DNA of 8,627 nucleotides from a virus (lineage: Duplodnaviria > Heunggongvirae > Uroviricota > Caudoviricetes): the IMG/VR virus record IMGVR_UViG_2671180854_000009, positions 1 through 8,627 of that record. One strand, written 5' to 3'. The position numbers were made by a program. Below are positions 1 to 3,000 of the stretch, in pieces (the stretch's first letter is position 1; each line of letters starts with the position of its first letter).

Positions 1-3000
1 ATAAAAGACAGTCTGACACTGGGACTGAATGCGCTGACGCTGACGGATGTTACAAAAAATGCAGCGTATGGCGTTGAGATAGAAAGTCTGGTGCTGGAGA
101 TAAATGCACCGGCAGCATAATAAAAAAAGAGCCAGCGACTGACCTGAAAGAAGACGCTGGCTAAAAGGCCTTATATGTTTGTAGAGACTTATTTTTCACA
201 GACAGCAATGATGCCTGTCAATATATTATCAATATGCGGATTGTTTCAGTTACAGATGCTTTATTAAGGAAAAAAACAGCCAGCACTGACTTTCGGTGGA
301 GAGGTGCTGGCTCAGAAGGATAGTTGGATTTCACATGATACTTATGCCTGGCGGTATATTTTCTGACAGACAGTGACGGGTGTTGTCAAGATATTGTGTC
401 ATTTATAACCTGAATCAGGGGAGGCCGGAATGTTATCTGGCATTTTTAGCAGAGCCTGAATGCCATAATCACGGCTCCCGGAGTTGGCCGTCAGTGGGTG
501 ACACTGGCGGTTTTTTTGTTTTTCTTTACTTTCATTTTCTGTCGGCGGTGACGGAGACATACATCAGATGGAAAAAATCACAACAGGTGTGTCATACACC
601 ACGTCAGCGGTGGGGACGGGATACTGGTTACTGCAGCTGCTGGACAAAGTCTCTCCGTCCCAGTGGGTGGCAATAGGTGTGCTGGGAAGTCTGCTGTTTG
701 GCCTGCTGACGTATCTGACTAACCTGTATTTCAAAATCAGAGAGGACCGTCGTAAGGTGGCGCGGGGAGAGTAGTCGATGAATAAACAATACGAACTGGT
801 TGTAAAATGAATATTTCTAACTGAAAAAACGTTCCATGAGGTAAGAAAAGGTCACAGGCAATCAATAACAGGACGTGATGAAAGACCCTTGCATTTGTGC
901 GCTTTCTCTTTAGATAGCAGCAGATACTGAAAATCTGAGTTGTCGGGGAGTCAGGGATACAGCTGTGCAAGAGTTGGTCATTGTGATTCCATTGAAATCC
1001 TGTATGCCATGAAGGGCAGGATTTTATGGCTACCTGAGCTTTGGTGATAGTAAGTTGAAAATTCGCATTTTTTGCTGACATGCGTAACGAGAATCCCATA
1101 AGCAGGGAGGACTTAATTCTTCATTAACCCATGCGTTGATATTATGTTTCAGCCGTTGAAGCATCAGCGGTGTTAATGTTGTGGTAATAATATCCAGCGT
1201 TTTATGTGAGATCTTACCGTAAGGGTCTGCAAGAATGCTGCTTGTTGCTTCGTTATTATCTGCCATCAGAAGAAGTAACTCTGATTTAACGTTTTCTGTC
1301 ATTAGTTGTAAAAATCTTCTGCGCAAACTTTCTTTACTGTTCATTTATATGGCTTCATTTGTTGTAATCTGCTGCGTCTCAAGGGATATGTTTATGAGAG
1401 CGACCATGAGTGTTGGATTATATATCTAACATATCAAGGGATTAGAAATCGATAAATCCCCATGAACGAAAAAATAAAATACGGCCTGTCGGCTGCCGTT
1501 CTGGCGCTGATTGGTGCAGGTGCTTCTGCGCCTGAAATCCTCGACCAGTTTCTGGATGAAAAGGAAGGTAACCACACCACGGCATACCGTGATGGTGCGG
1601 GGATCTGGACCATCTGCCGTGGTGCCATTCTGGTGGATGGTAAGCCTGTTATTCCTGGCATGAAGCTGTCAAAGGAAAAATGCGACCGGGTTACAGTGGC
1701 GTTATTGATATGCCTGCCGGTCACGGTCACATGACGCTGGAGTTTTCGGTGTCAGCATGGCTGGTAAATAACTGGTATCCCACAGCAAGTATCAGCGATC
1801 TGCTGGTTGTGGTGATGAAAAAATCCACAGCAGGTATCAGTATCAGCTGAATTTTATAACCCAGAACGGGCGTCAGAAATGACGCCTTTTTTATTGCAGA
1901 AAAGCGAGAGGTAATTATGCGTAAACTTTATGCCGCCATTTTGTCCGCAGCCATTTGTCTGACCGTATCCGGTGCGCCTGCATGGGCGTCTGAGCAGCAG
2001 GCCACGCTGAGCGCGGGGTATCTTCATGCCCGGACGAACGCTCCCGGTAGCGATAATCTTAACGGGATTAACGTGAAATACCGTTATGAATTCACGGACA
2101 CGCTGGGGCTGGTGACGTCATTCAGCTATGCAGGAGACAGGAATCGCCAGATTACCCGTTACAGCGATACCCGCTGGCATGAAGATTCCGTGCGTAACCG
2201 CTGGTTCAGCGTAATGGCGGGGCCGTCTGTGCGCGTGAATGAATGGTTCAGCGCGTATGCGATGGCGGGAGTGGCTTACAGCCGTGTGTCGACTTTCTCC
2301 GGGGATTATCTCCGCGTAACTGACAACAAGGGGAAAACGCACGATGTGCTGACCGGAAGTGATGACGGTCGCCACAGCAACACGTCTCTGGCGTGGGGGG
2401 CTGGCGTGCAGTTTAACCCGACCGAATCCGTGGCCATTGATATTGCTTATGAAGGCTCCGGCAGTGGCGACTGGCGCACTGACGGGTTCATCGTGGGTGT
2501 TGGTTATAAATTCTGATTAGCCAGGTAACACCGTGTTATGACAGCCCGCCTGTTCAGGCGGGCTTTTTTGTGGGGTGAATATGGCAGTAAAGATTTCAGG
2601 TGTACTGAAAGACGGCACAGGAAAACCGGTACAGAACTGCACAATCCAGCTGAAAGCAAAACGTAACAGTACCACTGTGGTGGTGAACACGCTGGCCTCA
2701 GAAAATCCGGATGAAGCCGGGCGTTACAGCATGGACGTTGAGTACGGTCAGTACAGCGTTATTCTGTTGGTGGAGGGATTCCCGCCGTCACATGCCGGGA
2801 CCATCACCGTGTATGAAGATTCTCAACCCGGTACGCTGAATGATTTTCTCGGTGCCATGTCGGAGGATGACGTCCGGCCGGAGGCACTGCGCCGTTTTGA
2901 ACTGATGGTGGAAGAGGTGGCGCGTCACGCTGAGGAGGCGAAGAAGAATGCCGGAGAGGCGGAGACGTCAGCGAGGAATGCCGGCATATCAGCCAGTCAG

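Follow-up and report, generated by a model that had tools for sequence, protein, structure and literature searches.

Related small RNAs and control regions

The closest described relatives of the locus studied here are PasA and PasC, the pathogenicity-associated prophage small RNAs (sRNAs) of EPEC E2348/69 (Pearl Mizrahi et al. 2021, PMC8550237; Zhu, Shabalina & Storz 2026, bioRxiv 10.64898/2026.05.13.724894). In EPEC, northern blotting revealed a major PasA species of 85 nt and a minor one of 236 nt on the minus strand, with 3' ends at positions 743415 and 743264 of E2348/69 (PMC8550237). Deletion of hfq in EPEC lowered PasA by 2.8 log2 (padj 8e-17), and PasA, an abundant RNA with 41 RIL-seq interactions, was among the top interactors (PMC8550237). 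The 5' end of PasA is possibly made by processing of a longer transcript (Zhu et al., bioRxiv 10.64898/2026.05.13.724894).

EcOnc51 and EcOnc52 are orphan catalogue entries from different prophages of E. coli O157:H7 Sakai (Tree et al. 2014, PMC4104026, Table S2). Both are Hfq-CRAC peaks flagged for Rho-independent terminators, with areas under the curve of 1.09M and 1.03M, respectively (PMC4104026), and both were later cited jointly as 'homologues of PasA' (PMC8550237). RNA sizes, Hfq dependence, Hfq crosslinking, and target chimeras are known from published work on orthologues.

More distant comparisons are also relevant. Like the two repeat units described below, AgvB and AsxR (RF02702, RF02703) are short prophage RNAs that bind Hfq, run antisense to the late operon, and lie in the moron region near the esterase; in each, the 5' part is variable and the terminator behind it conserved. 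However, their terminator sequence is different, and they lie upstream of the esterase, whereas our units lie downstream. The lambdoid late control module (Q, qut, pR', 6S/StxS RNA, tR') resembles the locus in having a short structured region and a terminator before the late genes; in contrast, our units are situated 3 kb past Q, after a moron gene, and their terminators are on the opposite strand.

OmrA/OmrB and PrrF1/PrrF2, core-genome genes that have known regulators and share their targets, resemble our locus in that two neighbouring paralogues lie on one strand, their promoter and terminator ends being conserved and their middles diverged, and in that a longer species arises when the first terminator is read through. 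In the present case, the second copy has diverged much further (about 74% in aligned columns), and its body is largely unrelated. Both pairs have been cited as tandem sRNA pairs (bioRxiv 10.64898/2026.05.13.724894).

Locus and repeat architecture

The window (the whole stretch of viral DNA analysed, 8,627 nucleotides) opens with the 3' end of a sialate O-acetylesterase gene, and its lysis cassette starts with a holin gene (Table 1). The spacer between them, at 122-421, very probably holds two paralogous small-RNA genes on the minus strand, antisense to the late operon. Both repeats have already been described, as the Hfq-binding PasA and the neighbouring EcOnc52 of Shiga-toxin-type prophages. 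In the present analysis, their identity, anatomy, family membership, covariation, synteny, and distribution were established.

Table 1. Features of the esterase-holin spacer, in window coordinates.
Feature	Coordinates	Strand	Description
Esterase, 3' end and stop codon	1-120	+	nanS-p/yjhS-type sialate O-acetylesterase (SASA/DUF6645); RefSeq and phage annotations beneath 100% and 97.8% matches
Site complementary to the PasA seed	90-97		GGTGCTGG, in the esterase 3' end
A7 run of unit 1	122-128	+
Unit 1 RNA (EcOnc52)	122-~187	-	~66 nt; identical to the Sakai Sp4 peak
Hairpin 1	130-137 / 155-162		AGCCAGCG / CGCTGGCT; 17-nt loop 138-154
Candidate unit 1 promoter	190-221	-	-35 TTGACA (221 to 216), 18-bp spacer ending in TGT, then GAAAAA
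A7 run of unit 2	270-276	+
pasA (unit 2)	270-354	-	85-nt Hfq-dependent small RNA; probe match, model R1, alignment
Hairpin 2	278-286 / 304-312		AGCCAGCAC / GTGCTGGCT; 17-nt loop 287-303
Candidate pasA promoter	355-389	-	-35 TTGACA (389 to 384), 18-bp spacer ending in TGT, then CAGAAA
Conserved structured segment	415-522	+	Terminator-like hairpin 486-512 and T-run 513-519 (terminator scan)
Holin	568-774	+	Class II (phage 21 S-type) holin; Pfam PF04971, E 1.3e-32; RefSeq annotation agrees

Positions 1-800 of the window are identical in a prophage of strain H19 (L002), which provided the upstream context. There, the Q antiterminator gene ends at L002 position 3099, about 3 kb upstream of the spacer, and a plus-strand terminator follows at 3180-3197, less than 100 nt past the Q stop codon. 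The genes between Q and the spacer are TerB, DUF3927, STnc100/AgvB, and the esterase.

The preliminary description had reported two copies of a roughly 150-bp unit, each carrying an A7 run and a hairpin whose loop is 17 nt long, and our results confirmed them as diverged copies. The repeat is genuine and degenerate, with 74% identity over the columns aligned by MAFFT and a 15-nt insertion in unit 2. TRF reported no tandem array, and an exact-seed search returned shared pieces of 15-20 nt only. The local alignment of unit 1 with unit 2 scored 32, compared with 15.9 +/- 2.4 in 1000 dinucleotide shuffles, none of which reached 32; with the hairpins removed, the score was 24 against 15.6 +/- 2.5 (6 of 1000 shuffles). 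The units have two blocks in common, the A-run with its hairpin and a second block, ACTTAT..TTTT[C]NACAGACAG-N9-TGTCAA[T/G]ATATT.

As previously noted, the two stems differ in sequence and stay paired: the eighth pair, G:C in hairpin 1, is A:T in hairpin 2, and unit 2 has an additional C:G pair. Folding of the minus strand gave -17.1 kcal/mol for unit 1 (z -3.16; 1 of 200 shuffles equal) and -16.3 kcal/mol for unit 2 (z -2.71; 2 of 200 shuffles equal). On this strand, each hairpin is followed by one base and then U7. On the plus strand, no T-run follows either hairpin (AAAAGG comes after 130-162 and CAGAAG after 278-312), and the terminator scan found no plus-strand terminator at either of them. 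Folding of both strands and the terminator scan therefore support the earlier view that the minus-strand hairpins with their U-runs are terminator-like. The plus-strand A7 runs correspond to the U-tails of these minus-strand terminators.

Selection on the hairpin structure, also proposed in the preliminary description, gained support from the relatives, where compensatory changes occur as well. In an alignment of 15 distinct family hairpins, 92.7% of the stem cells were paired, compared with 22-54% when the partners were slid. Four of the ten stem pairs change on both sides, for instance from C:G to U:A in the L009 type, although the independent events are few and the outer six stem pairs are invariant. 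The type E hairpins, misaligned by MAFFT, were left out of the pair counts.

The plus-strand segment at 415-522 folds at -42.1 kcal/mol (z -3.0) and is 97-100% conserved in the tandem and PasC-type loci. Its hairpin sits about 50 nt before the holin start and bounds the repeat without being part of it. All the other contexts seen upstream of an S21-type holin contain an equivalent hairpin whose stem sequences differ. The element at 486-519, formerly taken for a tR'-like terminator, is a terminator-like element preceding S21-type holins and not tR'.

The tRNA scan of the window found none. Rfam searches of the window at gathering and permissive (E<=10) thresholds gave nothing relevant, only chance snoRNA and TCV matches with E>2. 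RF02702 and RF02703 gave no window match, whether at the gathering threshold or at E<=10, and the same search detected an AgvB copy directly upstream of the esterase in L002 (4061-4122, 96.5 bits). Literature searches on the RNA sequences, on EcOnc51/52, and on nanS-p with sRNA and holin returned nothing besides PMC8550237, PMC4104026, and bioRxiv 10.64898/2026.05.13.724894.

Unit 2 is pasA

Unit 2 is pasA. The published 25-nt PasA northern probe, GCCAGCACTGACTTTCGGTGGAGAG, matches window 279-303 exactly, and the PasA ends mapped in E2348/69 fall at window 354 (743499) and 270 (743415). Compared with E2348/69 PasA, unit 2 is unchanged over its 3' 45 nt and has about 11 differences within the first ~40 nt. 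We also built a covariance model, R1, from 14 PasA/PasC relatives, none of them from the window. R1 matched 270-354 on the minus strand over model positions 1-85 with 105.7 bits (E 5.8e-18), and in the window search the next match after units 1 and 2 had an E of 0.1. The Sakai Sp12 peak EcOnc51 maps to the terminator region of unit 2. The expectation that transcripts end at the hairpins agrees with the published data: the two PasA 3' ends and both EcOnc peaks map there.

Unit 2 shares with PasA/PasC the length, the strand relative to the late operon, the seed GCCAGCACCU, the neighbours (esterase upstream, holin/lysozyme downstream), and a complementary site in the esterase 3' end. The sequence differences probably make it the 'PasA-2' variant, described in the literature as equally common; the sequences of this variant are absent from the paper text, so the label was matched by description. 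Expression and an association with Hfq are published for orthologues in EPEC (northern blot, RNA-seq of the hfq deletion strain, RIL-seq) and Sakai (Hfq-CRAC), and the unit 2 RNA would by analogy be expressed, Hfq-bound, and Hfq-stabilised.

A 9-bp stem (312-304 / 286-278), one G, and U7 (276-270) make up the pasA terminator. The seed, which is the reverse complement of 302-311, overlaps this stem. The whole 85-nt PasA-like RNA folds no more stably than shuffles (z -0.5), and structure is confined to the terminator. The published PasA RIL-seq target motif, CUGGUGCUGGA, is present in the homologous esterase genes E2348C_1246 and E2348C_0688 (PMC8550237). When the full sRNAs were paired with the 3' end of the esterase in RNAduplex, the long duplexes obtained were meaningless and were set aside in favour of the 8-nt complement and the published motif.

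The candidate pasA promoter is invariant across the PasA-, PasC-, and L009-type loci. It predicts a start at about 353-354; TTGACA plus 29 nt gives 354, matching the reported 5' end 743499. The candidate -10 elements of both units are weak (CAGAAA in unit 2, GAAAAA in unit 1), and the consensus promoter scan picked neither candidate promoter.

Unit 1 corresponds to EcOnc52

Unit 1 is identical in sequence to the Sakai Sp4 Hfq-CRAC peak 1181998-1182075, and its orientation relative to the late operon, like that of unit 2, is the antisense one of EcOnc51 and EcOnc52. Its RNA has a single-stranded 5' part, UCUCUACAAACAUAUAAGGCCUUUU, and an 8-bp terminator stem (162-155 / 137-130) followed by C and U7 (128-122); one sequence specific to the unit is UCUCUACAAACAUAUAAGGCC. 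The pasA spacing rule places the start at about 186, 1 nt off the EcOnc52 5' boundary at 187.

R1 scored 122-201 on the minus strand at 31.8 bits (E ~1e-4, by a rough calibration), and the score is the same in Sakai Sp4, H19, and E. albertii. Most of the signal is contributed by the terminator, the U-rich linker, and AUAAGU. By this score, the membership of unit 1 in the PasA/PasC family is weak but significant. What unit 1 has in common with PasA/PasC is limited to the terminator, the U-rich linker, and the promoter block. With PasC it shares the stem AGCCAGCG/CGCUGGCU and the position against the esterase stop codon, whereas the body differs. The PasA seed is absent from unit 1, and GCCAGCGUCUUC occupies the equivalent position; unit 1 would therefore be a paralogue with a different predicted specificity and not a copy of PasA.

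The EPEC counterparts of unit 1 are the 3' end of the 236-nt PasA form and a RIL-seq fragment, 743265-743297. This 3' fragment is the sRNA-side chimera partner of the rpoS start region (92 fragments), the pfkA 5'UTR, and escD.

The translation-start region of rpoS is the top published chimera partner of unit 1. The best predicted pairing between them, GCGUCUUC:GAAGAUGC, has an energy of -14.3 kcal/mol, which 114 of 200 shuffled targets equalled, so this pairing is unsupported by energy alone. The 5' region of unit 1 contains ACAAACA, which agrees with seven of the eight positions of CACAAACA. A role as an AgvB-like GcvB sponge was rejected for now, as 209 of 500 shuffles equalled the duplex with GcvB R1 (-11.1 kcal/mol).

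Proposed mechanism and alternative explanations

In the explanation that we favour, each cassette would consist of a -35 box (TTGACA), a short body that is largely unstructured, and a Rho-independent terminator. This terminator, with its GC-rich GCCAGC/GCUGGC stem, 17-nt loop, and U7 tail, would double as the Hfq-binding 3' end. Both RNAs are most likely Hfq-dependent base-pairing RNAs produced in the lysogen, and the unit 1 terminator would also end the 236-nt read-through form of PasA. The target-recognition sequence is predicted to overlap the 5' arm of the terminator and the loop, as GCCAGCACCU in PasA and GCCAGCGUCUUC in unit 1, and the seed idea centres on GCCAGCACC. Such an overlap of seed and terminator hairpin would explain why the outer six pairs are fixed while the inner stem and loop differ and yet remain paired. 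Since the hairpins have no plus-strand U-run, late and esterase transcripts would pass through the units and end, if anywhere, at 486-519. The promoters, the independence of unit 1, and its seed are the parts of this explanation that we infer. Two paralogous sRNA genes antisense to the late operon account for the duplication and the orientation, which had been left unexplained.

Unit 1 may be a third, independently transcribed PasA/PasC member with its own seed and partners, which arose by an old tandem duplication of promoter, body, and terminator; this reading falls a little short of probable. Another possibility, which we consider rather doubtful, is that unit 1 is a decayed duplicate that only backs up termination when PasA is read through; any RNA made from 122-269 would then be the 3' part or fragments of the 236-nt isoform. 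In line with this, PMC8550237 lists a 236-nt PasA ending at the unit-1 terminator and counts the unit-1 RIL-seq entry as PasA. The background chimera counts of the unit-1 fragment are about 6% of those of PasA (~12.8k vs ~200k), its -10 element is weak, and its R1 score is low and mostly derived from the terminator. Because identical prophage copies in Sakai make the CRAC assignment ambiguous, the unit-1 RNA could derive wholly from PasA read-through. However, in Sakai Sp4, where IS629 replaces unit 2, unit 1 and its TTGACA block remain, and the EcOnc52 peak was assigned there, with the near-coincident 5' boundary given above and an area equal to that of EcOnc51. Approximately 100 plasmid places carry unit 1 alone, and the TTGACA block is retained in stand-alone copies. 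In one locus (L087), the 43-nt promoter block is unchanged, compared with eight changes in the transcribed part, and this promoter block is the second of the conserved blocks common to both units. Furthermore, the unit-1 partners rpoS start, pfkA, and escD are not among the PasA partners seen (ftsB, galE, pflB, infA, and others).

Two further explanations give the repeats a role on the plus strand or in local insulation. The preliminary description had placed them in a late regulatory region upstream of a tR'-like terminator. Read in this way, they would be late-gene control elements such as a late promoter, a Q-utilisation site, or attenuators. Their position upstream of a plus-strand terminator-like hairpin and the lysis genes fits this proposal, as does a weak plus-strand promoter-like match at 199-227, but we consider it very improbable. 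The region is the spacer between the esterase and the holin, about 3 kb past Q and after the esterase, whereas pR' and tR' are expected where L002 has its terminator, right behind the Q stop codon. The hairpins lack a plus-strand T-run, promoter-like matches are not in excess (2 vs 2.6 in shuffles), and the published RNAs from the locus are minus-strand. Since many S21-holin prophages have neither unit or only one, the units are dispensable for late transcription. It is also unlikely, though less so, that the hairpins mainly serve the plus-strand esterase mRNA as 3'-UTR stabilisers, or block antisense transcription into the esterase, with the sRNAs as by-products. The first hairpin adjoins the stop codon of the esterase in all esterase-linked types, plus-strand folding of the stems is just as good (-17.1 kcal/mol in unit 1 and -21.2 kcal/mol in unit 2), and an EPEC plus-strand RIL-seq fragment antisense to the PasA 5' end suggests that esterase or late transcripts cross the units. 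Nevertheless, the U7 tails, the TTGACA boxes, and the conserved spacing all belong to the minus strand, PasA is an abundant RNA that Hfq stabilises and a top RIL-seq interactor, and type D spacers have the esterase without the hairpin.

In the literature, the locus is viewed as a single gene, pasA, that also yields a minor long isoform, and Pas copies are not considered tandem duplicates. The anatomy described here points to two paralogous cassettes, the second possibly with its own promoter and targets. If unit 1 is independent, PasC would be a hybrid of a PasA-type promoter and body with a unit-1-type terminator abutting the esterase stop codon, and the recent statement that tandem duplication is not the source of Pas copies would need qualifying. 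An unnamed sRNA gene would also be added to about 12% of complete E. coli genomes. The identification clears an annotation gap, as a conspicuous structured repeat turned out to represent published prophage sRNAs that depend on Hfq and, in EPEC, interact with core and virulence transcripts. For sequence scanning, an A-run plus hairpin that closely follows a stop codon in the moron region of a prophage is a reason to read the opposite strand.

Distribution and synteny

Among 5426 complete E. coli genomes, unit 1 was found in 677 and unit 2 in 679; about 12% carry the pair. The locus occurs at a median of three places per carrying genome, and RefSeq leaves it without annotation. From 137 sampled PasA/C loci, 81 were tandem. 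The order esterase, sRNA, and holin, with the sRNA antisense to its neighbours, is that of the published pasA and pasC contexts. The alignment showed the same tandem layout as the window in the E2348/69 PP2 pasA locus, and the units of Sakai Sp12 are likewise in tandem. Type E spacers (L027, L020) were excluded from the family, as R1 did not detect them at E<0.1. The tandem form is also present in E. albertii.

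Repeat units and hairpins

The A7 runs and the two hairpins of the preliminary description are present where it had placed them (see the feature table). As minus-strand RNA, hairpin 1 folds with -17.1 kcal/mol (z -3.16; 1 of 200 dinucleotide shuffles as good) and hairpin 2 with -16.3 kcal/mol (z -2.71; 2 of 200), and one base and then U7 follow each of them on the 3' side. The folding of this strand and its terminator-like character were borne out. On the plus strand, no T-run follows either hairpin, and esterase or late transcripts would thus be expected to read through both. 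The repeat of about 150 bp held as a significant local alignment of degenerate copies, not as an array; TRF found no tandem array in the repeat region, and exact-seed repeat finding returned only 15-20-nt pieces. MAFFT aligned the units with 74% identity across aligned columns and placed a 15-nt insertion in unit 2. Their local alignment scored 32 versus 15.9 +/- 2.4 in shuffles (0/1000 reach 32), and 24 versus 15.6 +/- 2.5 with the hairpins removed (6/1000 as high). Because the score survives hairpin removal, two blocks are common to both units: block 1, the A-run plus hairpin, and block 2, which ends in TGTCAA.ATATT and reads AATAT[A/C]TTGACA-N9-CTGTCTGT[G/CA]AAAAT on the minus strand.

Features of the repeat region and of the remaining prophage in the window
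Feature	Position	Strand	Remark
A7 runs	122-128 and 270-276		read from sequence
Hairpin 1	AGCCAGCG (130-137) / CGCTGGCT (155-162)		17-nt loop
Hairpin 2	AGCCAGCAC (278-286) / GTGCTGGCT (304-312)		17-nt loop
Candidate -35 TTGACA, unit 1	221->216	-	in block 2
Candidate -35 TTGACA, unit 2	389->384	-	in block 2
Lom/Ail	1917-2516		directly after lysozyme ORF
Tail fibre	2575-3894
NleG	4375-4965
SopA-like/pentapeptide E3-ligase-type effector	5015-7387
NleC	7641-8627

Identity of the units

Judged by sequence, unit 2 is pasA, and on the minus strand each unit runs from a TTGACA box through a short body to a hairpin-plus-U7 terminator. Window 279-303 matches exactly the PasA northern probe GCCAGCACTGACTTTCGGTGGAGAG (Table S6, Pearl Mizrahi et al. 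2021, PMC8550237). In that table, the PasA coordinates on the E2348/69 minus strand are 743499->743415 (85 nt, major form), with a minor form of 236 nt ending at 743264; the gene lies between E2348C_0688 (esterase) and E2348C_0689 (holin) (PMC8550237). Aligned with the window, this E2348/69 locus showed a matching tandem layout; its PasA ends corresponded to window 354 and 270, and the 3' end of the minor form to the unit-1 terminator. The covariance model R1, built from 14 PasA/PasC relatives (none from the window), gave 105.7 bits (E 5.8e-18) on 270-354(-) and 31.8 bits (E about 1e-4) on 122-201(-), and its next-best match after both units had an E of 0.1. Rfam has no family for PasA-type RNAs, and its AgvB and AsxR models had no match in the window.

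Compared with E2348/69 PasA, the unit-2 RNA is identical in its 3' 45 nt and has about 11 differences among the first 40 nt; these two variants were the commonest in the IMG/VR locus sample (35 occurrences for the window variant and 34 for the other). PasA and 'PasA-2' were reported to be about equally common, with a common 3' end and divergent first 40 nt (Zhu, Shabalina & Storz, bioRxiv 2026). Unit 2 is probably PasA-2, a label that we infer because the text of Zhu et al. gives no sequences.

Unit 1 matches, and by that measure is, EcOnc52. EcOnc51 and EcOnc52, two Hfq-CRAC peaks of E. coli O157 Sakai, are remarked on as EHEC homologues of PasA (Table S6, PMC8550237). From their coordinates (Table S2, Tree et al. 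2014, PMC4104026), EcOnc51 (prophage Sp12) is the unit-2 terminator region and EcOnc52 (prophage Sp4) is unit 1 base for base, UCUCUACAAACAUAUAAGGCCUUUUAGCCAGCGUCUUCUUUCAGGUCAGUCGCUGGCUCUUUUUUU. Both were flagged with Rho-independent terminators and were close in Hfq-CRAC area, at 1.09M and 1.03M (PMC4104026).

In the candidate promoters, an 18-bp spacer with TGT at its end separates the -35 box from a weak -10 (CAGAAA or GAAAAA); a consensus promoter scan picked neither TTGACA site. A start 29 nt past the -35 box falls at window 354 in unit 2, which coincides with the PasA 5' end as reported; the same rule predicts a start at 186 in unit 1, 1 nt from the EcOnc52 peak boundary (187). The PasA 5' end is possibly a processing product (Zhu et al., bioRxiv 2026). 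We infer both promoters, a unit-1 seed and any regulatory outcome.

In the best-supported account, the products of both units would be base-pairing sRNAs that depend on Hfq and are transcribed from the minus strand in lysogens. PasA changed by a log2 of -2.8 in an hfq deletion strain (padj 8e-17) and had 41 RIL-seq interactions in EPEC (PMC8550237). RNA size, Hfq dependence, Hfq crosslinking and RIL-seq interactions were shown in orthologues; identity, anatomy, covariation, synteny and distribution were observed here.

The observation as a whole was confirmed, and the element is already known as PasA, EcOnc51 and EcOnc52; what is left as new is to read the locus as a pair of tandem paralogous cassettes. 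According to a recent survey, Pas copies did not arise by tandem duplication (Zhu et al., bioRxiv 2026); that statement concerns full-length copies, and the diverged neighbour is not mentioned.

Genomic position and distribution

Many E. coli chromosomes match window 1-800 at 100% identity, and in them the neighbouring genes carry the annotations 'SASA family carbohydrate esterase / DUF6645 protein' and 'class II holin'. The identity of window 1-800 is 97.8% to phage H-19B and 95-96.5% to Stx1a-converting phages, in which the upstream gene is annotated yjhS, 9-O-acetyl-N-acetylneuraminic acid deacetylase; Pfam confirmed a phage-21-type holin at 568-774. The gene order in the strain H19 locus (L002), which has no difference from window 1-800, is Q antiterminator (2278-3099), TerB pseudogene, DUF3927, esterase (4270-6120), spacer and holin, with a plus-strand terminator 80-100 nt past the Q stop. 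The units therefore lie ~3 kb downstream of the actual late control region, in the esterase-holin spacer and not at pR'/qut/tR'. The preliminary description was right on structure and wrong in placing the units in the late regulatory region. Directly upstream of the L002 esterase, where the AgvB model does match, lies an STnc100(+)/AgvB(-) pair; the esterase thus has a minus-strand gene for an Hfq-binding sRNA on either side. The pair is convergent and occupies L002 3871-4122.

Of 5426 complete E. coli genomes, 677 carry unit 1 (2299 places) and 679 carry unit 2 (2191 places), with a median of three unit places per genome; no RefSeq feature lies under the units among the matches listed. Among one-genome-per-species representatives, the PasA/C body motif was found only in Escherichia albertii, in tandem there too. 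This distribution agrees with the published restriction of Pas sRNAs to Escherichia and Shigella (Zhu et al., bioRxiv 2026).

Possible independence of unit 1

The duplication and orientation, which had been left as a puzzle, are explained by tandem paralogous minus-strand cassettes, with about an even chance that unit 1 is an independent gene. The alternative, that its RNA is the tail of PasA read-through, draws on the known 236-nt read-through form (PMC8550237). However, in Sakai Sp4, IS629 stands in place of unit 2, whereas unit 1 and its TTGACA block are kept and the EcOnc52 peak is assigned there; read assignment is nevertheless ambiguous, because several prophages carry identical unit-1 copies. 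About 100 plasmid places carry the esterase remnant and unit 1 alone, and in one such copy (L087) 8 changes fall in the transcribed part and none in the 43-nt promoter block, which also speaks against read-through.

The unit-1 3' fragment (743265-743297) forms the sRNA side of EPEC RIL-seq chimeras with the rpoS translation-start region, the pfkA 5'UTR and escD, none of which is among the PasA partners examined; the rpoS chimeras comprise 92 fragments from three published libraries. Read-through would fit the unit-1 entry having only about 6% of PasA background counts.

In the Sp4 locus (L085, NC_002695.2 1181400-1182900), IS629 is inserted at a point matching window ~243 and removes unit 2, the plus-strand terminator and the holin; unit 1 keeps ~55 nt of upstream sequence. 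The lone unit 1 and esterase 3'-end remnant are on virulence-type plasmids with IS elements on the flanks, and in L087 2412-2646 (O26:H11 plasmid NZ_CP031923.1) terminator pairing is retained via a G.U wobble. The rpoS side of the chimeras is E2348/69 NC_011601.1 3102402-3102485 (-18 to +66), in an rpoS annotated as frameshifted; the searched passages of the RIL-seq source paper do not mention this chimera. Predicted duplex energies of unit 1 with rpoS were no better than shuffles, and pairing with GcvB, another candidate, also failed to beat them.

Covariation, seed and spacer types

Spacers upstream of S21-type holins were collected from IMG/VR. The esterase-holin spacers among them were tandem, as in the window (444-448 nt), single with a PasC-type unit (291-293 nt), single of the L009 type with the stem AGCCAGUAC/GUACUGGCU (299 nt), 'type E' with a different minus-strand unit (237-239 nt), or without a minus-strand unit (161-162 nt). 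The PasA/C-type body was tandem in 81 of 137 occurrences and single in 55. Over 15 distinct family hairpins with a 10-pair stem, standard pairs filled 92.7% of stem cells versus 22-54% with the 3' partners slid. Four of the 10 pairs change on both sides with pairing held: the L009 type has U:A in place of C:G, the unit 1/PasC type has G:C where the PasA type has A:U, and the other two are inner pairs of the stem. No shuffle reached the observed covariation score, which reflects few independent events. The suggested structural constraint and compensatory changes across homologous prophages were thus found.

The six outer pairs (AGCCAG/CUGGCU) are invariant in the 15 hairpins and so are uninformative on structure; their invariance fits the overlap of the PasA seed GCCAGCACCU with the terminator 5' arm (PMC8550237; Zhu et al., bioRxiv 2026). 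The seed complement, GGTGCTGG, lies at window 90-97 in the esterase 3' end, a site listed as a PasA RIL-seq target in both E2348/69 esterase genes (PMC8550237).

PasC appears to combine parts of both units: its promoter and body are of PasA type, and its terminator has the unit-1 stem AGCCAGCG/CGCUGGCU and adjoins the esterase stop codon, like unit 1. At one locus, a PasC-type loop goes with a unit-1 body. Type E spacers (L027 1264-1500 and L020 1262-1500) hold their unit at the equivalent position, with a TTGACA box, a ~95-nt body that encloses a GGGGAUAUUCCCC hairpin, and an 11-bp terminator, GCCAGCGCAGA/UCUGCGCUGGC, followed by U6; it had no R1 match at E<0.1 and no Rfam match.

Plus-strand elements and remaining prophage

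A plus-strand hairpin and T-run at 486-519, ~55 nt before the S21-type holin start, has equivalents in loci L006-L084, and such an element precedes this holin in every upstream context seen, esterase-linked or not. The stems differ yet pair (GCCGTCAGTG/CACTGGCGG, GCCATCAGT/ACTGGTGGC, GGGGCTGTCGG/CTGATGCCCC, GGACCATCGG/CCGGTGGTC). With this covariation, it looks like a conserved terminator or insulator ahead of the lysis cassette and would be a likely stop for unmodified polymerase. The segment 415-522 (+) folds with -42.1 kcal/mol (z -3.0), is 97-100% conserved in tandem and PasC-type loci, and could be an RNA of the plus strand or a structured 3'UTR belonging to the esterase; no EcOnc entry lies at its equivalent in Sakai Sp12. 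Upstream of it, a plus-strand fragment at about window 348-366 forms chimeras with PasB (EPEC RIL-seq).

Window 775-8627 is degraded prophage, with a lysozyme ORF of only 90 aa (1462-1734); strain H19 also has a terminase, head/tail genes and the remainder of a lysis cassette, all of which are missing from the window. An ORF at 1030-1344 (-), where AT-rich sequence separates the holin from the lysozyme remnant, has no Pfam match; it encodes 104 aa in the window and is annotated in strain H19 as the 90-aa hypothetical protein WP_000138558.1.
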